Shown here: positions 2,414 to 58,558 of the stretch, in pieces
How the letters are laid out: every line of letters starts with the position of its first letter
Numbering within the stretch: position 1 is the first letter of the stretch
From: Escherichia phage vB_EcoM_ESCO50
DNA: 64,000 bases
Strand: one strand, 5' to 3'
Sequence record: OM386664.1
Position numbers and translations under genes: made by a program
Notes under the pieces: generated by a model
Databases searched by the model: none
What the model was told of the DNA's origin: nothing
Seen by the model: only the letters and a program-made list of their open reading frames with translations

Positions 2414-3546
2414 TAAGGAACCTCTAAAAATCCACTATTCAAATCGTCTACAACAGTATTCAATAGGTACGCACCGTTCTGTTGCTCCTGATTAGCATTC
2501 TGCTCTTTATCAATTTCCATCTTCTTAATCATGTACTTCAAAGGTGGTTCTTTAGGAGCTACAAAATCTCTTTGAATACCAAACATATCATATAGCGGGG
2601 CAGCATTATAGTAAACCCACTCATGAAGAAGCTTTGTATTTAAGCCAACTACAGCACGTCCTTCGGAGAAGATATAATACGACCATTTCTCTTCACTTTC
2701 AACTACTTCATCTAAGATTACTTTAATCTCTGGAAGAATTTGTTGAAAAGCTTTCTGCCACTCATCGTCTCTTAAAGTTTCTTTTAAAACTTCAATATCA
2801 ATTTTAGTGTGAAGGATTTCGTCAAGCATAATTTTCTGGACAGCTTGAGCAATACCCTGAAATTTATCTTGAGCATCAAGTGCAAAGGTACATGCAAAGG
2901 ATGCCATAAAAGATATACCTTCCAGTGCAGTCACTGCAAATAGACCTTTCAGAATCACTTTATGGAAGTGTAAAGGGTCTTTGTCCAGAAGTGAGTCGCG
3001 CACATAACTCAGACGATAGTTTATACCTTCATCCAGTAATTCTTCAAGAACACGATTCACAGTTTTTAATCGGTCTTGCACAGCAACATTCTGGTTAATT
3101 TCGTCTAAGATTGTTTCAGGGTTTTTAATACATTGTCTTACAATCTCTGAGTAAGTAAGAGCATGTAGGTTTTCAATCTCAGACTGCTTCATAATTGCAG
3201 TTGCATAGATGTCATCAGAGATAAATGGTGCAAAGGCAAATGCCAAGCTCTTAGCAACTTGAGTGTCTGCTTCCCATTGCCACTTAAGAATCTCAAGCAT
3301 TACACCTGACATTGATGCTGGGACACTCTCAAAATCAAGACGTGATTGTTCAAAAGGAAACTCATCTTCTGACCAGTCTTGTGCTTTTTGTTGTTTATAA
3401 AGTTCAAAGATTTTTGGGTAGTGCTTGTTAAGTGAGTCAAAAGTTTTTCTCTCACCACCTAAAAAGATTGGGTGCTGGTTAATCATAGTGTGATTTCTCC
3501 TTTCTTTATCATTTCTGAGGCTTGTTTTCTGTCTAAAACTTCCCAA
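2413..3546 (-). CDS. nrdB: Ribonucleotide reductase class I small (beta) subunit
   Basis: 377 aa, helical, acidic C-terminus, immediately downstream of nrdA. True start may be the internal Met (MINQHPIF...). Confidence 0.8.
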   Translation of the reverse strand: MGSFRQKTSLRNDKERRNHTMINQHPIFLGGERKTFDSLNKHYPKIFELYKQQKAQDWSEDEFPFEQSRLDFESVPASMSGVMLEILKWQWEADTQVAKSLAFAFAPFISDDIYATAIMKQSEIENLHALTYSEIVRQCIKNPETILDEINQNVAVQDRLKTVNRVLEELLDEGINYRLSYVRDSLLDKDPLHFHKVILKGLFAVTALEGISFMASFACTFALDAQDKFQGIAQAVQKIMLDEILHTKIDIEVLKETLRDDEWQKAFQQILPEIKVILDEVVESEEKWSYYIFSEGRAVVGLNTKLLHEWVYYNAAPLYDMFGIQRDFVAPKEPPLKYMIKKMEIDKEQNANQEQQNGAYLLNTVVDDLNSGFLEVP

Positions 3547-26018: not shown

Positions 26019-28364
26019 TTAAGCAGTTCTTACCCAAGCCATCAGCTTATAGAACTGGTTAGTAACACTAAATGCTGAACCAGAGCCTGTACCGCCAGTG
26101 TTACCGCTTACTGTATGGGTGTGAGCACCAATACCAACACTGTGAGCATGGTTACCATTTGATGCAGCAGTACCAGAGATTGTGTGGGTGTGAGCACCAG
26201 CAGAATCAGTGTAACCCGGTCCTGTACCGATTCTACCACCACCACCGCCAGAATAGTGTGTAGAGTTCTGACCAATCCATGAGATAGCGTGGTTGTGGTT
26301 ACCAGCAGATGAAGTAGAACCACTTACAGAGTGTGTGTGAGCACCAGTCGTGTTAGTGTTTTTTGTTCCGTAGTCAAACGATGAGGTAGTCGCAGAAAAA
26401 CTGTGCGTGTGTGAAGGTAAGTTTCCAACTGCTAACGTAACAGAATCTGAACCACCTGTTGTAGCAACATCTGAACCGTTTGCTGCTGCAATTCTGATAG
26501 TTCTACCAACACCATTGTTCAGATACGTCCAAGTTAGACCAGGCAGTGCTGTATTAGGGTCAACATTACTGTTAAACCACGTTACAATACCTACTGGATA
26601 GATTTTATTCAGGTCTGTAGAGTCACTTACTGCCTGCGCAATCTTCTGGTCAGTTTCTGCTTTAGTGTATGCGCCAATATCTGAAGGGGTTGGTTTAAAT
26701 GCCGTTGAATACAACTGTGCCTCTCCAACATATTCTCCATCTGACCCATAAGCATATGTGAAGACATCAAGACCTCTAGACCCATATGTAAAAGCAATGC
26801 CTCTGGCATGAGCAATACCAGCAGAGTGTGCTACATGGATGGCTAAATCTTTCAGACCCTGCTCAATATCGTTATTTCTTACAAACCCTGAATAATCTTT
26901 ATTGAATGACGCTGTGTCCTCCAACCTATTAGTTGTCCTTACCATTAAAGATTGGTTTAGCAGTTTTGTTTTTAAGAAATACCTAGCATCTAAGTTAGAC
27001 CAATCAGAAGGCTGTACTTGTCCAGTGATTTTGACAGTTTTATTCAACAAGAAATCATCTTGCATATAAATCGTAGTTAAAGTTCTGTCGTTGTGGATAA
27101 TAAGCCTTGTTGGGTTGTCTCTTTCCCCGCTACCAATGTACCATCTTCTCGCATTATCAGCATTATAACCACCAATATATAGCTCATTGTCTTGTGTGGT
27201 GTTCTTTAGCCGTAACAGTGAGCCATTCTGGTTGATAACTTGCGCAGACCTGAAAGTGTTTACATCACTTAGCTTAGCAAGATTACTCAAAGTCCCTGCC
27301 GGAATATATCTAGAGTCAATGTTAGTCCAGTCAGAAGGTTGTACTTGACCAGTTACAGTTAGTGTTTTATTGATATCAACACTTGTCCCTACAGTAATTT
27401 TGCCACTAGTTTTGTAGTTTTCTAGAGCTACGTTATCACCTCCATTATTATTACCAATGTACCATCTGTTGGCACCTGTGCTATCAATCGCTTTAATGTA
27501 CAATGGTTGTGCAGCATTGGCATTCTGTAGCCTAATTACTTCACCATCTTTTTTGAAAACATTTAGTTGGTTGAAAGTGTTAGAGCCACTAAAAGTATTA
27601 TCAGCAGTTAACTGTGCAAATCTCTGATTAGCTACTGTCTGAGTGAAGTATCTAGCATCTAAGTTAGAGAAGTCCGAAGGTTGAACTTGGCCAGTGATTT
27701 GAATTGATTTATTCACAGAGATTAGGTTAGCTAAAATCGCTACGTATGCACCAGATTTAACGTTTTTTAAAACAAGGTTGTCTGTGTTTCTATTATCATT
27801 ACCTAGATACCATCTGTTAGTGCCATCTGCATCTTGACCACGAATATAGAGTGGCATCCCTTGTGTGATATTCTTAAAAATAAGGGCTTCATTGTCAGAG
27901 AGAATATTTTGAGTCCCAGAGAATGTGTTTGTTACAGCAAGCCTTGCATATCTTGCATCATTTTCTTCATTAGTTCTCATCCCAAGTTCATTAGGACTTG
28001 GTTTATTCAAAGTATGATAAACAGTTGCCGACCTTGAAGCATCTGCAATAGTTAGTTTAAGACCATTTGCGTTAATTTTAAAAGTCTTTAAAACATCCCC
28101 AATAGTAATCTCAGAAGAGCCTGTTGGGTCAAATACTGCCTTACCACCATAAAGTAACTTAACAATCCCTAAGTCACCCGTCATAGTGCTACCAGCAATC
28201 TGAACAAATCTTTCAAGTTTAAAAGATGCTAAGAAGTCTTGATAGGTCATTCGACGGTCTTCATCACCCAGCATTTCAGGTCTCTTTTTAACTCTGACAT
28301 GAAGAAGGTCGTCTGAACGAATTGTATCAATTGAGTTTAATTCACTCAACTTGTAATCTGCCAT
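26019..28364 (-). CDS. Tail fibre protein (781 aa) with His-x-His repeat tip domain
   Basis: C-terminal region rich in HTHS/NHNH/AHTHT repeats and Gly/Ser/Thr; ends ...[22 protein letters not shown]. Confidence 0.75.
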
Positions 28365-42073: not shown

Positions 42074-43189
42074 TTATGCGTCTTCATCGTCTTCAGCATC
42101 AGCGCGAACATCAATCAGCAACTGAGGACGAGTACAGTATGGCAGCATGTAAGAGTGAGCTTCGAAGTCAATACCTTCGTCACGGTCTTTTTCGTATTCG
42201 AATACGTACAGTTCCTGACCAAGTGTATTTGCGTAACCCATCTTAGGACATGGACCATATGCAACTTCGAAGATGTTGTTAGCTTCACCAAGCATAGATA
42301 CGTTAGGGAAAGCATGACCAACACCAACAGTTGATGCTACACCATCAATGCTCACCAGAGTGTGAACATTACCACGCTTGTCTTTGAACTTACCGTTGTA
42401 CTGGACAAACTTAACACCACCGTAGTAGAAGGTGTTCATATGAGCCTGAACGCCGTCAGTACCACCAGTTCTCAGAGAACCAGTAATCTGTTGCCAAGCC
42501 AGTGGAGTCTGCTGTGCAAGATAAGCGTCACGAATCTTAGGATGCTTAGTCAGTTTGCTGAAGAATACACGGTCAACAACTACATGAATTTCTTCACCGT
42601 TGATTACAGTACCAGTCTTAGCTTCGTCTTCCATGTGCATACGCAGTTCTTCAATAGATGCGTCGATGTCAGCATTAGGGTTGTCAAGGTCGAAGTAAAT
42701 AGTCTTCTTCTGAACGTCGAACTGCTGGTACAGGTCAGCATACAGTGTACCACGAGCATCAACAACTTTACCCTTCAGAGCTTGCATAAACAGGAACTCA
42801 CGAGTAATATCGAACTTGGTACGAATCTTCATCAGCTTCTTAGCACGGACTACAGCTTCAGTAGTCAGTTCGTTTGCAGTGCCTGGCTGACGTACACCCT
42901 GAATCTCATCAGGAGTGATGCTTTCAACTTCTTTGAAGTACATCATTGGGAAGCTGATTTGACGAACACGCTCAGGTGCGCTAGTCTCTGCTTTACGACT
43001 ATCACGGTCTACCGCATCAAGCAAGCTAACATCCCAATCAGTCAAATCCATAAGGAAAGTAGTTTGGGTGATTGGTGCTGAACGGAACAGACCTAAGTTG
43101 GAAATATACCCATAAGTATTTGGGATAGACTGGACTTCACCAGTCAGGTCAGCAAGGAAAAATCTGCTTTTTTCAGAATTAGTCAACAT
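42074..43189 (-). CDS. Major capsid protein (HK97-fold type)
   Basis: 371 aa, position after protease/scaffold and decoration genes. Confidence 0.7.
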   Translation of the reverse strand: MLTNSEKSRFFLADLTGEVQSIPNTYGYISNLGLFRSAPITQTTFLMDLTDWDVSLLDAVDRDSRKAETSAPERVRQISFPMMYFKEVESITPDEIQGVRQPGTANELTTEAVVRAKKLMKIRTKFDITREFLFMQALKGKVVDARGTLYADLYQQFDVQKKTIYFDLDNPNADIDASIEELRMHMEDEAKTGTVINGEEIHVVVDRVFFSKLTKHPKIRDAYLAQQTPLAWQQITGSLRTGGTDGVQAHMNTFYYGGVKFVQYNGKFKDKRGNVHTLVSIDGVASTVGVGHAFPNVSMLGEANNIFEVAYGPCPKMGYANTLGQELYVFEYEKDRDEGIDFEAHSYMLPYCTRPQLLIDVRADAEDDEDA

Positions 43190-47284: not shown

Positions 47285-48901
47285 TCAACGTCTAAGCCCC
47301 TCATATGGGTTTCCTCTCACTAAGTCTGTGTGAACACCCATTGATGGTGGCTTGAATAATTTAACTTCATTAAGACTGTTGAAAGCATCACTGGTAGCAT
47401 CCACTTGGTCATCTTTAGTTTTGCCATCACCACAAAAGCCTTCAAGCTCTTGAAAATAAGCTTCGTTCCAACTACCTCTCAAGACTTTTACAAGTCCAGC
47501 TTCAGAAGCAGCAGAAAACCCCGCAAATCGGGTAACTTTATCTTTATTTGTTGGTTTAGCTCTTGCACGATAGCCTTTCTCGGCAAGTTTCCTGATGAGG
47601 GATGTTGCGTAGGATTTACCAGCAGCGCCTGGGTCTTGAGGGATAAAAATACCAGTTCGCTTACCGTCACTTTCAGCAGTCAAATTAATTTGTGTTTCGA
47701 CTCCAGAGGGTCTATCTCTAAATCTTACTACATCAATGATATAATAGCAACCGTCTTTTTTAGATTTACCCATCTTAACACCTGCTGTCCAGTCTGGATT
47801 AGGGTTAACCTCAGATGGTAAAGTTGCTGCTAAGTCCCATGCTCTAACATCAAATACATCTTCTGGGAGTGAATCAACAATCTCACACCATTGTCTTTGC
47901 CAGTAGTTTGAACCTTCTGCACGAGCCTTCCAGTTACCAAAACGAAGTCTTGCAACGTTTACAGGAGTGTTGTTTTCCAACTTACCACGATACTTAGGTT
48001 CTAAGAAGTCAAGAATTGGGTTATCATCAATCGTACCAGAGATGAATGTGTATGTTTGAGGAATCTCAAGAGGGAACATTTCAAGAATCTTATCCCTTTC
48101 CCAATCAGAAACCATCACACCATCATTCATTACATACCAACGAATACGACCACACTTTTCAGGGTCTGGATAACCTTCTTCATCTAAGAATGGTTCTACC
48201 CAATCGTAAATAAAGTGGTCTCTATCTGGGTTCATGGAAATCTTCATGTATGAATCACCTTCAGCACCAGAACGTAGACGGGTTTGTAGGTATGAAATCT
48301 GTGAAGCAGAGAAGTGTGTACCTTCGTCAAAGTAAATAGCTGAGTATTCAATACCCTGATGACCTTCAGCGTGCTTTTCAAGTTCTAGGTAGGTAAACTT
48401 GATAGTTGCCCCAGAAGGGAATGTGATAGTCATTTTCTGCTCGTGAGGAATCCCGCCAAACTTACCAAATAGTTTCTTTGCAGCAGGCCATAAACCACCT
48501 TGTAACTGTGTTGTGTTTCGACGGAAATACACAGCATTATAGTTAGGGTCTTCAATAAATCTTAAAGAGTCCATTAACAATGCGGCAGTCTTACCAGCAC
48601 CAGCAGCACCACCATAAAGAACCAAGTCAGCATTAGTGTTTAAAAAGACCTCTTGAGAACCCGGCTGAGGGGCTACATAGTTCTTATCAGTCATCAATTT
48701 AAAGATGAGGCGAACTTGGTCTGGTGTGTATCTTAATAAAGTCAGAATTTGAGTTGGAAGGAATTTAGAGGGGTCTTTACCGAATGATTTAATAATTTCT
48801 TTTACTTCATCAGAAAGCCCCAACTCTCCAGCTAGGACTTTCCTAACATCTTCCACTCGCTTCTGCTTAACAGTATTTAAGTCCATTAAGCGCCTCCGCA
48901 A
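47285..48901 (-). CDS. Terminase large subunit
   Basis: Walker A VLYGGAAGAGKTAALL in N-terminal ATPase; 538 aa. Confidence 0.85.
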   Translation of the reverse strand: MRRRLMDLNTVKQKRVEDVRKVLAGELGLSDEVKEIIKSFGKDPSKFLPTQILTLLRYTPDQVRLIFKLMTDKNYVAPQPGSQEVFLNTNADLVLYGGAAGAGKTAALLMDSLRFIEDPNYNAVYFRRNTTQLQGGLWPAAKKLFGKFGGIPHEQKMTITFPSGATIKFTYLELEKHAEGHQGIEYSAIYFDEGTHFSASQISYLQTRLRSGAEGDSYMKISMNPDRDHFIYDWVEPFLDEEGYPDPEKCGRIRWYVMNDGVMVSDWERDKILEMFPLEIPQTYTFISGTIDDNPILDFLEPKYRGKLENNTPVNVARLRFGNWKARAEGSNYWQRQWCEIVDSLPEDVFDVRAWDLAATLPSEVNPNPDWTAGVKMGKSKKDGCYYIIDVVRFRDRPSGVETQINLTAESDGKRTGIFIPQDPGAAGKSYATSLIRKLAEKGYRARAKPTNKDKVTRFAGFSAASEAGLVKVLRGSWNEAYFQELEGFCGDGKTKDDQVDATSDAFNSLNEVKLFKPPSMGVHTDLVRGNPYEGLRR

Positions 48902-49330: not shown

Positions 49331-49406
49331 TGGAGAATCCGAAGGGACTTGAACCCTTATAAACCTGTTTTGCAGACAGGAACATATCCATTTCTGTCAC
49401 GGATTC
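49331..49406 (-). tRNA. tRNA-Cys (anticodon GCA), CCA encoded
   Basis: Manual fold: perfect 7-bp acceptor, T-loop ttcaagt, anticodon loop cu-GCA-aa. Confidence 0.7.
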
Positions 49407-49411
49407 AAAAT

Positions 49412-49504
49412 TGGAGGAAGATACCAGACTTGAACTGGTACACCGATTTCTCAGCTACTGGCAGTTTAGCAAACTGCTCCCTTACCTTTTAGGGTTAATC
49501 TTCC
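49412..49504 (-). tRNA. tRNA-Ser (anticodon GCU), long variable arm
   Basis: Manual fold: perfect acceptor (ggaagat/atcttcc), anticodon stem gcagt/actgc, loop uu-GCU-aa, ~20-nt variable arm. Confidence 0.7.
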
Positions 49505-49505
49505 A

Positions 49506-50240
49506 TTATCTCTGTAATGCGCTCTTCATTTCTGGTGTTGCAATAGTATCAATCACACCAGTTTTACAAGCATCATCAAACCAGTCTGGTAAGATACCTG
49601 CTAAGAACCCATTGATATTCGTTTTAAGGTACTCTGCAATAAGGGCAGCTTCTTCTTCAATCATCTGCACAACTTCATCTGCATAAGCTGTAATCTTTGA
49701 AATACCTTCATTAATCTTACTAACAGCCTGATTAGCTAAATCAGAAATAGTCTCAAGACCCTCATCAATAGCGTCTTGTAAGTCACTTAACACACCGTTA
49801 ACACTGTCTAGTGTGCTGTTAATCATGTCAATAGCTTGCTGACCATACTCTGTAGCAACACCCATAATACCACTAAATGGTGTACAACCAACTTGTTCTC
49901 CTGCTGCACCCATAACATTGGAATACCCCTTTGCTACCTGCATACGTGATGAAAACTCATCAATAGACTTTTGACCATAGTCTGTTAGGGTCTTAGTAGT
50001 TGCTGTAGTGCTTGTAAGGCTTGTTGTAAAGCTGTTTAGAAGGACTGTTGTAAGTCCAGCAGCAACAAGCTTCTCCTGCATTGTAGGGTCTGTTACAGAG
50101 CTAATAGAGCTTACAAGTGATGTAGAGGCAGCTACGGTTCCACCGAGAACTGCTGCACCAGTAATAAGTGGGTTAGAAAACCCTCTACCGGTTTTTAAGA
50201 GATTAAAAATCTCCTTACCTTGTTCTGTCATCTCTTTCAT
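49506..50240 (-). CDS. Hypothetical Ser/Thr/Ala-rich protein embedded in the tRNA array (start trimmed to MKEMTEQ with AAAGG RBS)
   Basis: ORF track 49506..50288 would overlap the UAA tRNA; internal start at 50240 avoids this. Confidence 0.5.
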   Translation of the reverse strand: MKEMTEQGKEIFNLLKTGRGFSNPLITGAAVLGGTVAASTSLVSSISSVTDPTMQEKLVAAGLTTVLLNSFTTSLTSTTATTKTLTDYGQKSIDEFSSRMQVAKGYSNVMGAAGEQVGCTPFSGIMGVATEYGQQAIDMINSTLDSVNGVLSDLQDAIDEGLETISDLANQAVSKINEGISKITAYADEVVQMIEEEAALIAEYLKTNINGFLAGILPDWFDDACKTGVIDTIATPEMKSALQR

Positions 50241-50256
50241 TAAGCACCTTTGAAAT

Positions 50257-50335
50257 TGGTACTCCATATCGGATTCGAACCGATACATAACACAGATTTT
50301 AAGTCTGGCCTCTCTGCCAATTGGAGTAATGGAGC
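50257..50335 (-). tRNA. tRNA with anticodon UAA (leucine anticodon) but short variable region
   Basis: Manual fold: acceptor 7 bp (one G-U), T-arm atcgg-ttcgaat-ccgat, anticodon loop cu-UAA-aa, discriminator A73. Confidence 0.55.
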
Positions 50336-50337
50336 AT

Positions 50338-50413
50338 TGGCGGGGGATGTTGGAATTGAACCAACTTCTTCGATTTCAAAGACCGAGGTTTTAACCTTGT
50401 AAACTAATCCCCT
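50338..50413 (-). tRNA. tRNA-Gln (anticodon UUG)
   Basis: Manual fold: T-arm gttgg-ttcaatt-ccaac, anticodon loop cu-UUG-aa, U8 present; A1-C72 mismatch. Confidence 0.6.
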
Positions 50414-50421
50414 TTAAATCT

Positions 50422-50979
50422 TTACTTTCTCAGTGGATGAATAAAGAATGCCAACATAACTCTTCCCCTTGAGAATGCTCTTTCTTCTGGGACAACACTT
50501 TTTAGTTTCCATCCAATATAAATTCTCCAGTAAAACTGTTTACCAAAGATTTTAATTGATGGGATAAAAGCGAATAATCCCCAAGCATTGCTATTCCACA
50601 TTAGGAGATAACCAGTCTGATTATCTTCAGGGTCAGAACTTACGTTGATATTACCTTTCCACTTAGTAACATCTTTTACATCTCTTCCTAATACATGGTA
50701 AGAGAAGTTATAAGCTTTGTTTCTCCAGAGCCATCCAACTCTCTGCATGTAGACACCCAGCTTACCAATCTTTCTAATCTTAGCCCATCTTTTAACGTGG
50801 CCTTCATCACCATCAATCGGGTTGTCATAGGTCTCCATCCATCTGAATCCAAAAGGTAGATGCCCTTTCTTCTCACTGTAGAATGGAACCACGAAAGGTG
50901 CTAAGATGACTGCTAAGGTTGCTGCAAATGGTTCTAGTAAAGCTAGGAAAATCCATGAAGCATACTTCAAATATCTCAT
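50422..50979 (-). CDS. Membrane protein (185 aa) embedded in the tRNA array
   Basis: N-terminal hydrophobic segment IFLALLEPFAATLAVILAPFVVPF; Trp/Arg-rich remainder. Confidence 0.5.
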   Translation of the reverse strand: MRYLKYASWIFLALLEPFAATLAVILAPFVVPFYSEKKGHLPFGFRWMETYDNPIDGDEGHVKRWAKIRKIGKLGVYMQRVGWLWRNKAYNFSYHVLGRDVKDVTKWKGNINVSSDPEDNQTGYLLMWNSNAWGLFAFIPSIKIFGKQFYWRIYIGWKLKSVVPEERAFSRGRVMLAFFIHPLRK

Positions 50980-50998
50980 CTAAATAGCCTCTTAAAAT

Positions 50999-51076
50999 TG
51001 GTGTTCCAAGACGGATTCGAACCGTCACTAATACAAGGTTTGAGCTTGCATCCTCTGCCAATTGGGATACTGGAAC
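50999..51076 (-). tRNA. tRNA with anticodon CAA (leucine anticodon), short variable region
   Basis: Manual fold: T-arm gacgg-ttcgaat-ccgtc, anticodon loop cu-CAA-ac, D-loop similar to the UAA tRNA, A73. Confidence 0.55.
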
Positions 51077-51077
51077 A

Positions 51078-51152
51078 TGGTACTCACTAAAGGACTTGAA
51101 CCTTTTTCTTCATCTTGTAAGGGTGATGTTTTACCATATAAACTAAGCGAGT
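51078..51152 (-). tRNA. tRNA-Val (anticodon UAC)
   Basis: Manual fold: acceptor 7 bp (one G-U), anticodon loop cu-UAC-aa, U8. Confidence 0.65.
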
Positions 51153-51247
51153 GTGAAAGAGGTCTGAAGTTGTGCCGCTAACTCAACTCCGTGGAATTTG
51201 TTACGGTCTTCAGTTGACACCAGCGGTCTTTCACTTGACCTCTGAAT

Positions 51248-51324
51248 TGGTGCTGCTCACAGGACTCGAACCTGCATTTCCATCCTTACAAGGGATGTGT
51301 AATAGCCAATTATACGAAAGCAGC
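51248..51324 (-). tRNA. tRNA-Thr (anticodon UGU)
   Basis: Manual fold: perfect anticodon stem catcc/ggatg, loop cu-UGU-aa. Confidence 0.65.
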
Positions 51325-51331
51325 ATTAATT

Positions 51332-51406
51332 TGGAGCATCCAGAGGGAATCGAACCCTCAACCTCAGTTTGGAAGACTGTAATTTTCCCGTTTAAACTAT
51401 GGATGC
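51332..51406 (-). tRNA. tRNA-Gly (anticodon UCC)
   Basis: Manual fold: perfect acceptor, T-arm gaggg-ttcgatt-ccctc, loop cu-UCC-aa. Confidence 0.65.
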
Positions 51407-51412
51407 ACTAAT

Positions 51413-51488
51413 TGGTGGAGAAGCAGGGAATTGAACCCTGTACTTAAGTTTGCAAAACTTATGTTTTAACCATGTAAACTACATCCCC
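51413..51488 (-). tRNA. tRNA-Ala (anticodon UGC)
   Basis: Manual fold: perfect anticodon stem, loop uu-UGC-aa, and a G3-U70 wobble pair (the classic alanine identity element). Confidence 0.7.
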
Positions 51489-51494
51489 AATGTT

Positions 51495-51571
51495 TGGTAC
51501 ACCTAGAGAGATTCGAACTCACACTAAGCAGATTCTAAGTCTGCTGCCTCTACCAGTTGGGCTATAGGTGC
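51495..51571 (-). tRNA. tRNA with anticodon UAG (leucine anticodon), canonical 77-nt short-variable-arm geometry
   Basis: Manual fold: perfect 5-bp anticodon stem gcaga/tctgc, loop cu-UAG-aa, 5-nt variable loop, A73. Confidence 0.6.
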
Positions 51572-51828
51572 ATTAAATCTTTTTAGAGAACTTCTAAGAA
51601 CCTAAGCAACAAGGTTCCACAACAAGCTGTAATAACCTTAGAAGCCCTCTAAAAAGACCTAAAAAGGTCTTTGCATAGTCTTGTTTAATCCGGTGACTAG
51701 AACCTTTGGAGAGCTTGATATTATCTCTTCTCCGTGACACCTACTAGGTGCTCTATGAGTGTGTACGACAATACACGCGGGATACCAAAGCAACACCCTA
51801 ATGAAGCTTGGCTTTAAATCTTATTAGG

Positions 51829-51916
51829 CGGTAAGTAAAGGAGTCGAACCCTCACCGTATCTCTACAGTGGCAACTGTTTTCAAGACAGTTTGGCTACCA
51901 TTAGCCGCTACCTACC
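51829..51916 (-). tRNA. tRNA-Ser (anticodon UGA), long variable arm, CCA not encoded
   Basis: Manual fold: anticodon stem aactg/cagtt, loop cu-UGA-aa, ~18-nt variable region; T-stem has two G-U pairs. Confidence 0.5.
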
Positions 51917-51929
51917 CCTAATAAGACTT

Positions 51930-52012
51930 TGGCATGGGACGGAGGAGTTGAACCCCTTTGAAACGGTGTTGGAAGCCGTTGCTCATGCCTTAGAGTCTTA
52001 ACATCGTCCCAT
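51930..52012 (-). tRNA. tRNA-like gene, tentative Trp (anticodon CCA); D-region unusually long
   Basis: Perfect 7-bp acceptor and good T-arm; hairpin with loop uu-CCA-ac; but ~26 nt between anticodon arm and acceptor. Confidence 0.4.
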
Positions 52013-52155
52013 ACTATAATTCGAAGCTTACCGTATTATCTCAACACTGTAAAGCCCCTTCTCAGATTATTTACATGTTCTGGAAAACATGAGATACAGA
52101 CCACCTCCCTACAGGAAGACCCGCTTAGGTCGTCTAAGTAATCTGCTAACTAAAT

Positions 52156-52237
52156 TGGTCGAGGCGGCAGGACTCGAACCCGCATACTCCACTTACTCGG
52201 TTAACGTCTGTTTAGAAGACAGATGAGATACGCCCCG
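52156..52237 (-). tRNA. tRNA-like gene, tentative Arg (anticodon UCU); non-canonical arm spacing
   Basis: Acceptor (one G-U) and T-arm are clear; perfect hairpin tctgt-cttctaa-acaga; spacing leaves no room for a normal D-arm. Confidence 0.35.
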
Positions 52238-52485
52238 TAATTATCTTTAAAGACTCTCTTAGAAAGCCCTTAAAGATGCCCACCTTATTAATCATACCGT
52301 GGGCTAGTACGCCAAATTCTTTGATGAGGGATTGGAAGACCTCACTGGTGTTTAGCCTATCAAGCTACTGCCAGAAAAACATTGTCGTTTGCATTTATTT
52401 TAAATTTGCAAAATAGACGCTACGCAACGAAAACTAAGGGTACTATAAAGTGGTCACATCATTATTCTGCTACACTTCCATTAAA

Positions 52486-52625
52486 TTATCTTTGTAGATA
52501 AGCTACCCAGACTTGCTTAAGGTCTGTAGCGATGTGACTTTTTGGGTTTAAATCTAGAATTTACCCTTTCACCCTTTGTGGTCGCATACTCACAGGTAAG
52601 CTTAATAACTTATCTACAAAGATAA
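52486..52625. ncRNA. Candidate structured ncRNA: perfect 17-bp terminal inverted repeat enclosing ~106 nt with internal hairpins
   Basis: 52486-52502 ttatctttgtagataag is the exact reverse complement of 52609-52625; interior has hairpin cagac/gtctg and others; no T-loop. Confidence 0.3.
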
Positions 52626-52673
52626 TTACCAGACCGTTGTTTATCATCTTAACTAGATATCTCATAAAGTGTT

Positions 52674-52761
52674 TGGTGTGCCGTGTAGGAGTCGAACCTA
52701 CCGAGTCTCAATGACAAGGGATTTACAGTCCCCACCGCTACCATCTACGGGATAACGACAC
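52674..52761 (-). tRNA. tRNA-Tyr (anticodon GUA), long variable arm
   Basis: Manual fold: perfect T-arm gtagg-ttcgact-cctac, anticodon loop cu-GUA-aa, 16-nt variable region, acceptor with one G-U, U8. Confidence 0.6.
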
Positions 52762-52830
52762 ATTTAATTTCTATTCAGGCTAAGGACTTGCACCTTACAA
52801 ATCGGTGAGCAATCGCTTCTCTCCTGAATT

Positions 52831-52907
52831 TGGCGGTTAGTCAGGGATTCGAACCCTGTGCCATTCGCTTAACAGGCGACCGCACATACCTTATGTGCTT
52901 CCTAACC
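52831..52907 (-). tRNA. tRNA-Asn (anticodon GUU)
   Basis: Manual fold: perfect T-arm caggg-ttcgaat-ccctg, loop cu-GUU-aa. Confidence 0.6.
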
Positions 52908-52992
52908 ATGTTTAGTATTACCAGACCGTATCTTTCAATTTTTTCTGCTAAAAATTTAATAAATATTGCTGTAAACGGTCTTCTGTAAAATT

Positions 52993-53069
52993 TGGAGGCG
53001 GGTGCAGGAGTCGAACCTGCCGATACCATGCTAATGAGACATGTGAGACGCCCTTTCTCTATACCCGCA
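52993..53069 (-). tRNA. tRNA with anticodon CAU (Met, or Ile if C34 is modified)
   Basis: Manual fold: perfect T-arm gcagg-ttcgact-cctgc, loop cu-CAU-ua; acceptor register ambiguous at the 1-72 pair. Confidence 0.5.
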
Positions 53070-53199
53070 ATTCTTAATGACCAGACCAAATCTCTTCTTT
53101 GTCCGATTTACCTTCAGGTGAATAAGATTAAGTTTGCTGTAATTGGTCTTCTGTCAAAACTGGCGTTCCAGAAGGGATTTGTCTACTGGAACATTAATT

Positions 53200-53276
53200 T
53201 GGTCTCTGTTGGAGGACTTGAACCTCCGGCCTTACCGCCCCAAACGGAACGCTCTACCAAGCTGAGCTAAACAGAG
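53200..53276 (-). tRNA. tRNA-Pro (anticodon UGG)
   Basis: Manual fold: perfect acceptor (ctctgtt/aacagag), perfect T-arm, loop uu-UGG-gg with G37. Confidence 0.65.
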
Positions 53277-53440: not shown

Positions 53441-54856
53441 TTACCAGATATAACGGTCAAGCATTACTGCTTTGAGCATTACGCTGATTGGGTCAAACTT
53501 CTCACCACCAAGTAGAGCTTTTAAAGTGGCTGGAGAGAAACCAGATACCATTGCTACACCGTTATCCTTAACAGATACTTCGCAAGTACCATTACGGTTT
53601 GCTAAGTACCAGAATACCAGTTGTGGCATCCCATATCCAGCTTTTTTGTACTTACTCTGAATTGCTTCAAAGTTTGTACGACCGTTAGCTCCATCAACCT
53701 GATTGAACTCCATATCTGAGAAGATGATAAGCTTACTTGGCATATCTTTCTGAGTCAAGTTATTTCTTTTACCTGTCTCAAGAATGCGGTCAAAAGCTGC
53801 TTGTAAGTTAGTGGAGCCATATTCAACGTGTCGCATCACCTGACGATGACGGTTTCGTAAATCACCACTCAGTTCGATGAAGTGAGGGTTTGTTGAATAA
53901 ACCATTAACTCATTCTTAAAGCAACCTGTATTGCGTTCTGCTACATACAATGCAAGTGATACACCAATATCAAGAGCAGTAATTGAACCAAAATTCACCC
54001 AAGACATTGAGCATGAAACATCAGACATACATAGGATGTTTTCACCTTCTGCCATCCAGTTTGGTAGTGCTTTCCACTGCTCATTAGCAACATCTGCATT
54101 ACCATACTTAACAGATTTAATCACATCGTATGGGTAAACAGCACCAGCATTAATCTTAGCCTTACCATTTGATAAGGACTCGATGTAAGCTTTGTAGCGT
54201 TCTCCATCTTTACGGTTAAACAGCTTTTGGTAACGTGCAGCAGCAAGTGAAGGAACCTTACTGTAGTCAATCTTACCAAACTCATTAGCAGAGATTTTTT
54301 GCTCAACTGTATCAGATAGTGCAGACAACAGTGTGCGGTACTCTTTCTCACTCAAGTTGGCAAACTTGCAGAAACGTTTTACAAACTGCTTATGACGTGG
54401 TTTGACTCGTGGTAACCACTTGGCTGCCAAACCTGCTGTTGCAGGGTCTAGTAATGCTGCTTCTAAATGCTTGAAGGCATCTGTCTCAAAACGAGTACCT
54501 ACGAAGATTTTGAAGTCATCAAAACGACCAAGTTCTGCAACCTTATCCATAATGCGAAGAACCTGTGTAGGCTCTAAAACTTTATCTTCAATCGCTTGAA
54601 GCAAAACAGTTCTGAAGGCTTTACGCTCACCCATACCTTCTCGTACATCTCGCATATGAAGCAAAATACGAACTGCAACATCAACATCCTCACGCAAAGC
54701 TTTGTAGAACAGGTCTGGTAAGATTTCTACATTGCTACGGCTTGAACCAGCAGCTTTGTAAAAGTCTACAAGAGCAGACATTGATGAAGTATGGTTTACA
54801 GCACCATTTTCAGTTCTACCTGCATGAAGGTGCGCATGTTTAAATAACTCGCTCAT
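53441..54856 (-). CDS. von Willebrand factor A (vWA/MIDAS) domain protein with ~260-aa helical N-terminal module; possible Ro60/TROVE-like protein
   Basis: MIDAS signature DVSCSMS (DxSxS) after a hydrophobic beta strand (ENILCMSDVSCSMS), later SKLIIFSDMEF; 471 aa. vWA assignment moderately confident; Ro60-like idea is inference. Confidence 0.6.
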   Translation of the reverse strand: MSELFKHAHLHAGRTENGAVNHTSSMSALVDFYKAAGSSRSNVEILPDLFYKALREDVDVAVRILLHMRDVREGMGERKAFRTVLLQAIEDKVLEPTQVLRIMDKVAELGRFDDFKIFVGTRFETDAFKHLEAALLDPATAGLAAKWLPRVKPRHKQFVKRFCKFANLSEKEYRTLLSALSDTVEQKISANEFGKIDYSKVPSLAAARYQKLFNRKDGERYKAYIESLSNGKAKINAGAVYPYDVIKSVKYGNADVANEQWKALPNWMAEGENILCMSDVSCSMSWVNFGSITALDIGVSLALYVAERNTGCFKNELMVYSTNPHFIELSGDLRNRHRQVMRHVEYGSTNLQAAFDRILETGKRNNLTQKDMPSKLIIFSDMEFNQVDGANGRTNFEAIQSKYKKAGYGMPQLVFWYLANRNGTCEVSVKDNGVAMVSGFSPATLKALLGGEKFDPISVMLKAVMLDRYIW

Positions 54857-55309: not shown

Positions 55310-55484
55310 TGGTATGCCTCTTATAAGACCTCTTAAAAGGCTTTTAAGATAAAAGATAGATATCCAGAAAGATATCTGTTTAAATAGCCTTTTTAGAGGA
55401 ACCTTTTAAGTTATCTTCTAAGTATTTATAAGCCTATACCTTGTCAAGTGCTTTGTCAACAACTTTTTTAACTTGCAATAGTTC

Positions 55485-55514
55485 TTGACTTGTTGTATGG
55501 ATTACTGTACCATC
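55485..55514 (+). promoter_or_regulatory. Putative sigma70-type promoter (TTGACT-N18-TACCAT), preceded by duplicated TTGTCAA element
   Basis: Read directly; ~25 nt upstream of first plus-strand ORF; upstream element ccttgtcaagtgctttgtcaac matches the one at 15033-15055. Confidence 0.35.
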
Positions 55515-55720: not shown

Positions 55721-55935
55721 AAATCGCAGATATTATAGACTTATATCAAACTGCAAAGAGTCATGGCTATATAACCTCAATTGGAAAGAATAGTCACTAT
55801 GATGCTTTGACTGGAATGTATTTCAGGGCAATGGCTCAATCTAGTGAACAACACTTAATGGTTTCTTCCAGTGAGTTTACTTCGTTTCTCTATTGCAGCA
55901 AAATTATAAACCGCAGGAGAACTGAAAAATGTTAA
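55702..55935 (+). CDS. Hypothetical small protein (77 aa)
   Basis: ORF track. Confidence 0.3.
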   Translation: MCSSQLEIADIIDLYQTAKSHGYITSIGKNSHYDALTGMYFRAMAQSSEQHLMVSSSEFTSFLYCSKIINRRRTEKC

Positions 55936-56519
55936 CAGTAAGTTTTAATTACAATAGTGATGGCTCTGTATCAATTAATTCACCGTATGCAAATGACCTA
56001 TTGAAAGAGTTAGTTAATCAGTGCTGTAGAGGTCTTCACTATGTTCCAACTTCTTTTAAACAGAAGACTATTGCTAATAACTTGATGCGTATAACAGTGA
56101 CGACATCGAATCCAAATTATAACTTTGATAGTGAAAGTCCGTACTCATTAGTTGCGCTTGGAGAGAGCAGCCAATTCAAACTTGTTTGCCACGACTCAGA
56201 AACATTTCTTAAGGTATTTTCCAGCCTTATCCATAATAATAAGTACAGCTACGTTGATGGTAGTGTAAACTTCTATCCAGCAAACTATACATGTTTGTTG
56301 GTTGATAATATGCGAAAAAGTAAGCAAGAACCTACAAGAATTTCATTTGATGTGAACTCTAGTCCAGACGCAGAAACAAGTAAGAACTTTGATATGAGTT
56401 ACGCATTGTCACTCAGTAAGAAATCCGAGTTCATTGATTATGTCAATGGATTTGGTTTTAAGTTTGATGAGAGTATGAATCTTAAAAAACTTAAGAACCT
56501 ACTTAAGACCAAAACTTAA
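55929..56519 (+). CDS. Hypothetical protein (196 aa)
   Basis: ORF track. Confidence 0.5.
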   Translation: MLTVSFNYNSDGSVSINSPYANDLLKELVNQCCRGLHYVPTSFKQKTIANNLMRITVTTSNPNYNFDSESPYSLVALGESSQFKLVCHDSETFLKVFSSLIHNNKYSYVDGSVNFYPANYTCLLVDNMRKSKQEPTRISFDVNSSPDAETSKNFDMSYALSLSKKSEFIDYVNGFGFKFDESMNLKKLKNLLKTKT

Positions 56520-56566
56520 GTGTGAATAGGGGCTAATGCCCCTTTAACTATTTATAAGGGTATTTA

Positions 56567-56941
56567 ATGCAAGCTAAGAGTGCAAAAGACTTTTATTGCT
56601 TCCTACAAACCTATATCAATTCCGTGCAAAATGGTGAAAGGTACAACCTTAATGATGTTATCCCAACACCTTTGACATGGAGGCTCGATAAATGGCCTGA
56701 AGAAGATATTACACCAACAAGCGAACAGTGTACCTACAATCCTGAAATCAACCTTCCAGACTCTGAGAATCTATTATATCCAATGTTCCATATTGTTGGT
56801 CTTGGAAGATTTCTTATGGATATCCAGTATGTAATTGGTAAAGATTATAAGGTTAAAGGTATTGTTGTTGGTGATGTATCTCCGCATCACAAAGGTTATT
56901 TTAGACTAAACGCACATTTAGAGGCTAAAAGAAATGATTAA
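56567..56941 (+). CDS. Hypothetical protein (124 aa), paralog of the N-terminal domain of the next gene
   Basis: MQAKSAKDFYCFLQTYINSVQNGERYNLNDVIPTPL... aligns with MIKAKTYPDFKEFVNGFVANVKAGKRYDFRTYQEAILPL... and both share ...FxMDxQYxI... Confidence 0.5.
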   Translation: MQAKSAKDFYCFLQTYINSVQNGERYNLNDVIPTPLTWRLDKWPEEDITPTSEQCTYNPEINLPDSENLLYPMFHIVGLGRFLMDIQYVIGKDYKVKGIVVGDVSPHHKGYFRLNAHLEAKRND

Positions 56942-58067
56942 AGCAAAGACTTACCCAGACTTCAAAGAGTTTGTGAATGGCTTCGTTGCAAATGTAAAGG
57001 CTGGTAAGAGATATGATTTTAGAACATATCAGGAGGCTATTTTACCGCTTACCTATAGTTCATATTGGCCTGAAGCTGATATTGCAGAAGTTGAGGAATT
57101 TGACTACGAGCCAGACTACAAAGTTCCATTTAGTGATGAGTTGCTTTACAGCATCGGTGCTCAAATGAGGACTTCTGACTTCTTCATGGACTTACAATAT
57201 GCAATTATCAATGATAAAGATGTTGATACGGTTTATTGTGAATGGTTGGCAAGAGTTAAACCATTCTCAATGCTGAATGCTAAGTTGAAGGATGCTATCA
57301 AGCCACCAGTAATCACTCAGCAGCCAACCAATCAAACAGTAAATGAAGGTGCTACACTTACCCTAAGTGTTGTTGCAACGAATGCTACTGGATATCAATG
57401 GAAAAAGGATGGTGAGGATATCACTAGTGCCACATCTGCAACCTACACCAAAGAAAGTGCAACCACTGCTGATGCTGGTTCTTATACTTGTGTTGTGTCT
57501 GGAGAGGCTGGTACAAGTGTTACCTCAGATGCGGCAACAGTTACTGTCAACGCACTGCCTGTGATTACACAGCAACCTTCTAGCCAGACCATCAATGAGG
57601 GTGGAAACATCAGCTTGGAAGTGACTGCAACAGGTGCAACAGGCTATCAGTGGAAGAAAGATGGTTCTGACATTCCTTCGGCTACAGAGGCTACCTATAG
57701 CAAGTCTGGTGCGCTTCCAGCAGATGCAGGTTCATATACTTGCGTTGTAACAGGTGCAGGTGGTTCTGTGGAATCTGATGCTGCAACAGTTACTGTGAAC
57801 GCACTTCCAGTAATCACTCAACAGCCAACCAATCAAGAAATCACTGAAGGTGATACCTTAACGCTGAATGTTGTGGCAACTGGTGCAACAGGCTACCAGT
57901 GGAAGAAAGGTGAGGAAGACATCCTCGATGCAACTGCTGCAACTTACACCAAAGAAGGTGCAACCGCTGCTGATGCAGGAAGCTACACTTGTGTAGTTAC
58001 TGGTGCAGGTGGCTCTGTAACATCTAATGCAGCAACAGTTACAGTTAACCCAGCAGGGGAGGCATAA
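56934..58067 (+). CDS. Protein with N-terminal paralogous domain plus three tandem Ig-like domains
   Basis: Three ~83-aa repeats each containing PVITQQP...GYQWKK(D)G...AGSYTCVV...ATVTVN, an Ig-like (I-set-type) pattern. Confidence 0.65.
   Translation: MIKAKTYPDFKEFVNGFVANVKAGKRYDFRTYQEAILPLTYSSYWPEADIAEVEEFDYEPDYKVPFSDELLYSIGAQMRTSDFFMDLQYAIINDKDVDTVYCEWLARVKPFSMLNAKLKDAIKPPVITQQPTNQTVNEGATLTLSVVATNATGYQWKKDGEDITSATSATYTKESATTADAGSYTCVVSGEAGTSVTSDAATVTVNALPVITQQPSSQTINEGGNISLEVTATGATGYQWKKDGSDIPSATEATYSKSGALPADAGSYTCVVTGAGGSVESDAATVTVNALPVITQQPTNQEITEGDTLTLNVVATGATGYQWKKGEEDILDATAATYTKEGATAADAGSYTCVVTGAGGSVTSNAATVTVNPAGEA
57304..58053 (+). repeat. Three tandem ~250-bp near-identical coding repeats (Ig-like domain units)
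   Basis: Repeat starts near 57304, 57553 and 57805. Confidence 0.7.
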
Positions 58068-58531
58068 TGCAACTCTCAAGAAAAGGTTTAGAAGCTATTA
58101 AGTTCTTTGAAGGTCTTAAGCTAGAGGCTTACGAAGATTCTGCTGGAATCCCCACAATTGGGTACGGAACAATTCGTATTTCTGACAAACCTGTTAAGAT
58201 GGGTATGAAGATTACCGCTGAACAAGCTGAACAGTATCTTCTCGCAGATGTTGAAAAGTTCGTTGCAGCAGTGAACAAATCCATCAAGGTTCCAACTTCT
58301 CAGAATGAGTTTGATGCACTTGTAAGTGAAACATACAACATTGGCATCACAGCCATGCAGGACTCTACGTTTATCAAGCGCCACAATGCTGGTAATAAGG
58401 TCGGTTGTGCAGAAGCTATGCAGTGGTGGAACAAGGTTACAGTCAAAGGTAAGAAGGTCACTTCAAACGGTCTTAAAAACAGACGTAGAATGGAAGCTGA
58501 CATTTATCTTGACAGTGTATACCCAAAGTAA
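58067..58531 (+). CDS. Endolysin, GH24 (T4 e-type) lysozyme
   Basis: FEGLKLEAYEDSAGIPTIGYGT catalytic-region signature (Glu, Asp, TIGxG); 154 aa. Confidence 0.85.
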   Translation: MQLSRKGLEAIKFFEGLKLEAYEDSAGIPTIGYGTIRISDKPVKMGMKITAEQAEQYLLADVEKFVAAVNKSIKVPTSQNEFDALVSETYNIGITAMQDSTFIKRHNAGNKVGCAEAMQWWNKVTVKGKKVTSNGLKNRRRMEADIYLDSVYPK

Positions 58532-58542
58532 TATCTTCATAG

Positions 58543-58558
58543 GCTCCTTCGGGAGCCT
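58543..58558 (+). terminator. Rho-independent terminator (ggctcc-ttcg-ggagcc + tttttatttt)
   Basis: Directly after lysozyme stop. Confidence 0.6.

Follow-up and report, generated by a model that had tools for sequence, protein, structure and literature searches.

The window analysed here is the whole 64,000-nt stretch of record OM386664.1 from Escherichia phage vB_EcoM_ESCO50. The genome belongs to the genus Felixounavirus (Felix O1-like myophages), and the DNA is 93–99% identical to that of many Felixounavirus genomes. Three adjacent genes on the plus strand are considered below: one for a 124-aa protein (56567..56941), one for a 377-aa protein (56934..58067), and one for the endolysin, a T4-type phage lysozyme (58067..58531; Pfam PF00959, Phage_lysozyme, E 2.6e-40; phrog_7, E 1.1e-56). 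The first two ORFs exist next to the lysozyme gene as set out in a preliminary description of this DNA. On the upstream side, the genes are bordered by a stem-loop read directly from the plus strand (56529..56542), GGGGC-TAAT-GCCCC followed by TTTAACTATTTAT, which is annotated in phage wV8 as a rho-independent terminator and is included among the terminators of the Felix O1 paper; it received no score in a simple terminator scan because of its interrupted T-run. On the downstream side, the scan found an intrinsic terminator, AGGCTCC-TTCG-GGAGCCT followed by TTTTATTTT (58541..58558, plus strand), and wV8 has a terminator annotated at the same place.

Within these borders, the genes are tightly packed. 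The 124-aa and 377-aa ORFs overlap by 8 nt, and the stop codon of the latter overlaps the endolysin start by 1 nt (TAATG). The stop–start overlap of the first two genes is conserved in 28 related IMG/VR loci, in the 8-nt form in the window and two loci and as an ATGA overlap in 25 loci, and the three-gene order is common to wV8, Felix O1, and the 28 loci. The overlap of the 124-aa ORF with the start of its neighbour suggests translational coupling, and the three genes probably constitute a terminator-bounded, translationally coupled unit. No sigma-70 promoter was found in the 24 nt separating the stem-loop from the first start codon. The nearest promoter-like sites lie at 55453–55513 and are given no weight, since the matches in this region (five) are fewer than in shuffled sequences (mean 9.2). 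In most relatives, the junction of the first two genes reads GCT AAA AAG AAA TGA, resembling a −1 slippery site. A programmed frameshift joining the two proteins was considered and rejected: the run of A residues lacks conservation (GCTAATAAATGA, GCTGAAAAGAAATGA), and loci with the 8-nt overlap differ in relative frame from those with the ATGA overlap. As the preliminary description had it, the 377-aa gene lies outside the structural module. It is immediately 5′ of the endolysin gene and about 13.7 kb from the major capsid gene, which is on the minus strand.

When compared with the PDB by phmmer, the 377-aa protein matches 9NCF chain S, the Hex-Dec protein of phage Bas63 (Escherichia phage JohannRWettstein), with E 3e-284 and 9C2D chain S, gp20 of Shigella phage Sf14, with E 2.5e-168. 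Its residues 1–190 align without gaps to both chains, and phrog_3995 is matched with E 1.6e-207. On sequence grounds, it is the ortholog of Bas63 Hex-Dec, Sf14 gp20, and Felix O1 gp36, a Hoc-like capsid hexamer decoration protein that will be referred to as Hex-Dec. Bas63 belongs to the same genus, and its Hex-Dec belongs to the same family, shares Arg79 and Arg107, and is likewise encoded beside the lysin gene, outside the structural module. Sf14 represents another genus, Mooglevirus, and its gp20 (9C2D/9C3A chain S) is a full-length homolog with a capsid-binding domain (CapBD) at its N-terminus and with three Ig domains. In Felix O1, gp36 (NP_944848) and gp37 (NP_944851) occupy the same order beside the lysin gp35 as the two ORFs of the window.

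The CapBD of the window protein comprises aa 1–124 (56934..57305, plus strand), as delimited by the ungapped alignment to 9C2D_S and 9NCF_S, and is about 95% identical to that of Bas63. It carries Arg79 and Arg107, which are invariant in all 29 CapBD homologs compared. In Sf14 gp20, these two arginines form salt bridges to Asp221 of the major capsid protein (PMC11821841). The window major capsid protein (42074..43189, minus strand; phrog_29), by homology the binding partner of Hex-Dec, matches 9ncf_A with E 1.7e-245 and 9c2d_A with E 7.6e-233, and ungapped alignment to these chains shows that Asp221 is kept. Cryo-EM places the CapBDs of Bas63 Hex-Dec and Sf14 gp20 at the centres of capsid hexamers, and only of the facet-edge (quasi-3-fold), pentamer-proximal class, the remaining hexamers being devoid of extra density in both structures (PMC12609058, PMC11821841). 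At the true 3-fold hexamers of Sf14, the geometry of Asp221 differs, disfavouring gp20 (PMC11821841). Judged by homology, the window Hex-Dec is a monomeric head decoration at the centres of facet-edge hexamers: its helical N-terminal CapBD of about 120 aa would plug the central depression of 60 such hexamers in a T=9 capsid, and Arg79 and Arg107, by salt bridges with Asp221, would hold it in place. Both the location and the anchoring are assigned to this phage from the near-identity to the solved homologs. Mass spectrometry (MS) detected gp20 in Sf14 virions (PMC11821841) and gp36 in CsCl-purified Felix O1 virions (44% coverage); the Felix O1 authors noted that the gp36 gene is far from the morphogenesis genes. 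The suspicion that the gene encodes a virion-surface protein is thus well founded, its close homologs being found on the capsid (9NCF, 9C2D) and in virions by MS.

Most GenBank and RefSeq records, as well as PHROG 3995, present this protein as a tail protein. The records and PHROGs carry the names “tail protein”, “putative tail protein”, and “major tail protein”, and Felix O1 gp36 itself was mis-assigned in 2010 as the major tail protein. The Ig region also matches PHROGs named major tail protein, but the tail-family matches are limited to the Ig repeats (residues ~96–295), and the Ig domain occurs promiscuously across virion proteins. Moreover, the two independent cryo-EM structures (9NCF_S and 9C2D_S) put the homolog at capsid hexamer centres, and the Bas63 authors explicitly term the tail annotation an error (PMC12609058). 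For the homologs, the tail assignment has already been refuted, and for the window protein it retains practically no probability. The widespread label is wrong and should be replaced by “Hoc-like capsid hexamer decoration protein”.

The part of Hex-Dec that follows the CapBD is an array of three Ig-like modules, all encoded on the plus strand. Module A (aa 125–208, 57306..57557) and module B (aa 209–291, 57558..57806) are defined by Pfam Ig_3/I-set matches, DNA clustering, and high model confidence (pLDDT ~95 for A); the terminal module D (aa 292–372), together with a 5-aa tail, PAGEA (57807..58064), is defined by its boundaries and DNA clustering. Pfam Ig_3 (E 3.2e-33) and I-set (E 3.7e-26) each match three stretches of the ORF, in agreement with the three tandem repeats of about 83 aa described earlier, and the repeats are mutually 71–77% identical as protein. 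The structure prediction proposed as a check returned an Ig fold, with AF2 pLDDT of 95–97 across the repeats. The best fold matches of the Ig model are themselves three-Ig arrays, for example titin I67–I69, LRIG1, and Robo. The domains are of the I-set type and acidic (pI ~4.05), and the disulfide pair is absent from all three.

In the cryo-EM maps of both Bas63 and Sf14, the Ig domains are not resolved, and both structure papers propose a Hoc-like adhesion role (PMC12609058, PMC11821841). The three Ig domains of the window protein would form a flexible fibre reaching outward from the head. On the model of T4 Hoc, their most likely role would be either to attach weakly and reversibly to mucus, glycans, or the surfaces of cells or to modulate the aggregation of particles; a capsid-stabilising effect is improbable. 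Like Hex-Dec, T4 Hoc is a monomer located at hexamer centres and built with a string of Ig-like domains; it is likewise dispensable, acidic, and a proposed adhesin or environment sensor (PMC12609058, PMC11821841). However, the CapBD is C-terminal in Hoc and N-terminal in Hex-Dec, so that the domain order is reversed, and the Hoc CapBD is smaller, topologically distinct, and devoid of detectable sequence similarity to that of Hex-Dec. In addition, the prolate T=13 head of T4 has Hoc on every hexamer, whereas in the T=9 head only a single class of hexamers receives Hex-Dec (PMC12609058). The “Hoc-like” PHROG matches of the 377-aa ORF are confined to the Ig region (residues ~119–289). The relation of Hex-Dec to T4 Hoc is one of analogy, not of family membership. 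The decoration protein pb10 of phage T5 (5LXK, 8ZVI) has an Ig domain similar in sequence to those of the window protein (E 5.6e-12), but it has only one; the alignment is limited to residues 133–206, and the window CapBD does not match the capsid-binding domain of pb10.

The number of Ig modules differs among relatives. Module number and type were surveyed in 28 IMG/VR loci because a list of 50 candidate CapBD homologs, mostly 210-aa forms with one Ig, is unrepresentative for lengths. The gene carries one, two, three, or four Ig units among 26 related loci, with protein lengths of 210, 294, 377, and 461 aa. DNA clustering resolves four orthologous module types, A, B, C, and D, which are 88–90% identical within a type and 66–74% across types; A/D and C/D chimeric units also occur. 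Bas63 has the arrangement A-B-C-D (460 aa), whereas the window protein is A-B-D (377 aa), without module C. The A, B, and terminal modules of Bas63 are nearly identical to those of the window, module D of the latter corresponding to the fourth and last Ig of Bas63. Felix O1-type phages have A-D (gp36, 294 aa, with two modules to the three of the window protein), and the one-Ig forms are A/D chimeras. The Ig modules of Sf14 gp20 fall outside the Felixounavirus A/B/C/D DNA clusters (Mooglevirus-like loci L024–L028).

The preliminary description held that the repeats are near-identical at the DNA level and expected an unstable copy number. Variation in copy number among relatives did stand up, but its premise did not: within the window gene, the repeats are pairwise 64.7–72.7% identical as DNA, their longest common exact word is 14–15 nt, Tandem Repeats Finder reported no tandem repeat in the array, and synonymous divergence between the units has reached saturation (dS of 1.1, of 2.3, or not computable). 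It might still be supposed that the array functions as a fast contingency locus whose near-identical DNA units often slip or recombine and thereby alter the repeat number, as the differing unit number and the chimeric units, which record past recombination between units, would suggest. However, the low identity and saturated dS speak against it, each type of module is conserved between phages as an ortholog, and the nearest relatives (94–99% identity) align gap-free over the whole query and hence have the same three Ig units. Together, these observations point to rare evolutionary events and not to high-frequency switching, and the contingency-locus explanation is regarded as very improbable. 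The alternative adopted here is that the ancestral order is A-B-C-D and that the Ig number in the genus shifts through rare in-register recombination among diverged modules.

The 124-aa ORF (phrog_4463) is the ortholog of Felix O1 ORF37 and corresponds to a CapBD without Ig domains. Its kinship with the N-terminal domain of Hex-Dec, already claimed in the preliminary description, is supported by BLASTP (33% identity over 101 aa, E 1e-14, covering Hex-Dec residues 1–100), by a phmmer match to 9C2D_S (E 1.7e-9), and by reciprocal cross-matches of phrog_4463 and phrog_3995. No Pfam family was found for it. Its AF2 model is of low confidence (pLDDT 56) and was used for coarse fold matching only, not for residue-level claims; in Foldseek, the two solved CapBDs, 9c2d_S and 9ncf_S, are its only significant PDB matches, with TM of 0.62–0.64. 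The column of R79 is Gly in 28 of 28 paralogs, and that of R107 is H, Q, N, or K. From these sequence comparisons, the 124-aa ORF is identified as an old duplicate of the CapBD that has lost both anchoring arginines. The texts of the Sf14 (PMC11821841) and Bas63 (PMC12609058) papers make no mention of a paralog or a duplication for the CapBD, and the MS table of the former covers structural proteins only.

Is the paralog a mere remnant of the duplication, passively carried and devoid of function? Such decay has occurred in one relative, L019, where the gene is a pseudogene with a lost start codon, a deletion of ~218 bp, and frameshifts; some database entries are truncated (88–118 aa), and neither a Pfam family nor a known function is attached to the protein. 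However, the gene is intact in 27 of the 28 loci, a distant 87-kb Ounavirinae-like contig also has it intact with the synteny kept, and its dN/dS of 0.13 at a median dS of ~0.7 indicates clear purifying selection. The conserved overlap with the Hex-Dec gene and late transcription in Felix O1, where RT-PCR assigned the orthologs of both ORFs to the late class, also argue against a functionless gene, and this explanation is considered unlikely.

A second possibility is that the paralog is itself a head decoration, Ig-less, that occupies the 20 true 3-fold hexamers, which Hex-Dec leaves free. The common CapBD fold, late expression alongside Hex-Dec, and purifying selection are compatible with this proposal, and the different contact residues could in principle suit the altered Asp221 geometry at those hexamers. 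Nevertheless, neither structure paper reports density on any other hexamer, and both anchoring arginines are substituted. Felix O1 gp37 is missing from the virion MS list (a shotgun list with a 25% coverage cut-off), and, in the text of the VpaE1 account, the proteins that its virions have in addition to the Felix O1 set number three, gp54, gp58, and gp68, the paralog not being among them. Furthermore, the paralog has decayed in one relative and is missing beside a distant gene, that of L033, in which a CapBD is combined with Big_2. The gene upstream of the latter was examined as a candidate CapBD paralog and rejected (E 3.6); it is a homolog of the window ORF 55929..56519. A second decoration made of the paralog thus appears improbable.

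The paralog is most likely, as we infer, a late-expressed accessory protein that stays outside the virion, and our best guess is that it assists or modulates the decoration or the assembly of the head. It might transiently sit at the centres of procapsid hexamers, or it might restrict or chaperone Hex-Dec in such a way that only the 60 facet-edge hexamers become decorated. That it is a functional non-virion protein acting on head decoration is a tentative proposal, possible but short of probable. As a joint explanation of the locus, a Hex-Dec gene within a terminator-bounded unit, in-register module recombination, and a non-virion CapBD-only paralog are together held with high confidence.

The preliminary description treated the finding as open, but the Hex-Dec protein, its location, the variation in Ig number, and the position of its gene off the structural module have all been published already, and the upstream paralog is the sole part of the locus outside published coverage. 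The new questions are thus confined to this CapBD-only protein: what its function is, and why Hex-Dec takes one hexamer class. Hex-Dec could be a display scaffold, and the natural series of one to four Ig modules on a constant capsid anchor is usable to test the effect of Ig number on adherence. Finally, if the role proposed for the paralog is true, it would give a Hoc-like decoration protein a partner devoted to assembly or regulation, and no such partner has been described before.

The two open reading frames lie on the plus strand where the preliminary description had placed them, at 56567..56941 (124 aa) and 56934..58067 (377 aa), and the paralogy proposed between the shorter protein and the N-terminal domain of the longer one is borne out by 33% identity over 101 residues (BLASTP, E 1e-14), with each protein also matching the other's PHROG family. 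In the 377-aa protein, the domain at the N terminus that binds the capsid (CapBD) is followed by three tandem units (residues 125-208, 209-291, and 292-372) that are 71-77% identical pairwise at the protein level. Pfam finds Ig_3 (3.2e-33), I-set (3.7e-26), and Ig_2 (3.2e-25) there, each in three stretches; AlphaFold2 predicts an Ig fold with a pLDDT of 95-97 over all three units, and in the PDB the model best matches arrays of three Ig domains (titin I67-I69, LRIG1, and Robo). Judging from the sequence, each module (57306..58049) carries one cysteine (GSYTCVV) with no partner at the B-strand position, so that the canonical I-set intradomain disulfide cannot form, as expected for folding in the bacterial cytoplasm.

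The protein matches chain S in solved cryo-EM structures of two capsids: 9NCF, from phage Bas63 (“Immunoglobulin-like domain protein”, 460 aa, E 3e-284), and 9C2D/9C3A, from Shigella phage Sf14 (“tail protein”, 372 aa, E 2.5e-168). It plainly belongs, as a three-Ig member, to the Ounavirinae Hex-Dec/gp20 family already in print, together with Bas63 Hex-Dec and Sf14 gp20. The name Hex-Dec comes from the Bas63 paper, which describes the Ig-like domains as flexible and unresolved, predicts one to four of them across Felixounaviruses, locates the gene over 10 kb away from the structural module, and notes that in the majority of genomes it wrongly bears the label tail protein (PMC12609058). The Sf14 paper describes gp20 likewise, reports it in particles by mass spectrometry, and has Arg79 and Arg107 of the 118-residue CapBD forming salt bridges with Asp221 of the capsid protein (PMC11821841). 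Both arginines are present in the Hex-Dec of the window and invariant in 29/29 homologs, and the capsid protein of the window, which shares about 97% identity with its Bas63 counterpart, retains Asp221; the binding mechanism in print can therefore be carried over directly. In Felix O1, ORF35 encodes the lysin, ORF36 a Hex-Dec of 294 aa, and ORF37 a paralog of 123 aa, a mapping confirmed here; gp36, described as a 31.6-kDa “tail protein” adjoining lysin gp35 and far from other morphogenesis genes, was detected in CsCl-purified virions with 44% coverage (PMC3185647). Absence from virions together with lack of an Ig fold had been named as grounds for refutation; neither applies, as homologs are in virions by mass spectrometry and an Ig fold is predicted. 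The finding is real and, except for a claim on DNA identity, correctly described, but it is already known. T4 Hoc and T5 pb10 are functionally alike in that they sit as monomers at hexamer centres and display Ig-like domains; however, Hex-Dec falls outside the Hoc family, having the opposite domain order and an unrelated capsid-binding domain.

The 2.7-kb region around Hex-Dec shares 93-99% identity with over 200 Felixounavirus genomes; the closest is Escherichia phage vB_EcoM_ESCO49 (98.8%), and wV8 stands at about 94%, as do many phages of E. coli, Salmonella, and Shigella. The rest of the gene content agrees with this assignment: the morphogenesis module occupies the minus strand from the tail fibre (26019..28364) to the large terminase (47285..48901) and contains the tape measure, sheath, portal, a match to phrog_53 (head maturation protease family), and the major capsid protein (42074..43189), while a DNA polymerase and a tRNA array are encoded as well. 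The latter comprises 15 tRNA genes (49331..53276, minus strand) and is directly adjoined on the same strand by a 471-aa DUF2828/DUF7788 protein (53441..54856; PHROG 850, “RNA-binding protein”).

The paralog, Hex-Dec, and the endolysin (58067..58531) form a single compact unit. The end of the paralog and the start of Hex-Dec share 8 nt (ATGATTAA), and the stop of Hex-Dec shares 1 nt with the lysin start (TAATG, following GGGGAGG). The unit is bounded upstream by a stem-loop (56529-56542) that in wV8 and Felix O1 carries a terminator annotation, and downstream by a clear intrinsic terminator found by scanning (58541-58558). By RT-PCR in Felix O1, ORFs 36 and 37 peak late, at 60 min, and the lysin peaks at 25 min (PMC3185647). 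The gene order is conserved in 27/28 IMG/VR loci and in an 87-kb metagenomic contig that is more distantly related. The junction in most relatives is GCTAAAAAGAAATGA with a 4-nt ATGA overlap; the window (56918..56941) is one A shorter in the A-run, so its paralog ends in EAKRND, not EAKKK, with the 8-nt overlap, which also occurs in two Mooglevirus-like loci. Just upstream of the unit lies a 196-aa ORF (55929..56519, plus strand; phrog_4034, Felix O1 ORF38), a homolog of which (26% identity, E 3e-17), at 248-865 of metagenomic contig L033, directly precedes a very distant CapBD+Big_2 gene. Even over so great a divergence, synteny with the decoration gene thus persists, a hint that the two may be functionally linked.

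The upstream paralog is the sole element of the locus unaddressed by the searchable literature, the available text of the Sf14 and Bas63 papers included (PMC11821841, PMC12609058), and the residual interest of the locus lies there. That it is real and conserved is evident from its matching 9C2D_S as a stand-alone CapBD homolog (E 1.7e-9), from a Foldseek search of the PDB in which its weak AF2 model (pLDDT 56) significantly matched only the two solved CapBDs (TM 0.62-0.64), from its restriction to Ounavirinae-type phages (68-92% identity), and from a dN/dS of 0.13 versus 0.05 for the CapBD; it is under purifying selection. Its homology to the capsid plug raises the idea that it decorates the 3-fold hexamers, but this is disfavoured. 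Against its being a capsid decoration, both capsid-anchoring arginines are replaced family-wide (Gly at the R79 column in 28/28; His, Gln, Asn, or Lys at R107), the protein is missing from the Felix O1 virion list (PMC3185647), and the Bas63 paper reports no density on undecorated hexamers (PMC12609058). Moreover, the paralog is missing beside the distant CapBD+Big_2 gene, and in the 87.5-kb Felixounavirus genome L019 (IMGVR_UViG_2706796742_000001, about 2840-3000) it has decayed to a pseudogene: its start codon is gone, about 218 bp are deleted, and there are frameshifts and additional substitutions. The Hex-Dec of that genome is a one-Ig form. The paralog is most economically read as a late accessory protein, dispensable and not in the virion, that descends from the capsid plug; that it controls or assists decoration is a guess. 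In Shigella phage vB_SflM_004 (P0048, P0095), which has a 114-aa paralog, the sole CapBD match is an 82-aa “tail protein” fragment; Hex-Dec may be truncated or split there, which would fit a dispensable decoration protein, or the fragment may be a sequencing error.

The Ig repeats had been called near-identical at the DNA level, which is not the case: pairwise identity is 64.7-72.7%, exact words shared between units reach at most 14-15 nt, synonymous divergence is saturated, and Tandem Repeats Finder reported no tandem repeats in the region. Copy number does vary, as was also proposed. Among 26 complete related loci, Hex-Dec has one Ig in four (210-211 aa), two in ten (294 aa), three in nine (377 aa), and four in two (461 aa), the remaining divergent locus encoding 298 aa. 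When all units are clustered at the DNA level, those of Felixounavirus fall into four orthologous module types (88-90% identity within versus 66-74% between types), arranged as A-B-C-D, A-B-D (the window and nine others), A-B-C, A-D, or single units. The single units are A/D chimeras, A-like in the 5′ third and 88-98% D-like in the 3′ third, and a C/D chimera forms one terminal unit. Changes in module number therefore stem from rare in-register recombination between diverged units, with loss of the modules in between, and not from slippage among near-identical copies. Variable Ig number is already published (PMC12609058), and module-level orthology and chimeras, not found in the accessible accounts of Hex-Dec/gp20, are a refinement of it rather than a discovery.

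A profile search with the CapBD and the paralog across 1.84 billion proteins returned only 12 cluster representatives (50% clustering). In distant metagenomic members (P0100-P0104), the Felixounavirus Ig modules are replaced by Big_2, Big-like, or another I-set domain, or by a Lys/Ser-rich low-complexity tail. The same plug is there joined to other display domains and thus behaves as a small, lineage-restricted anchor that has received different surface domains by shuffling.
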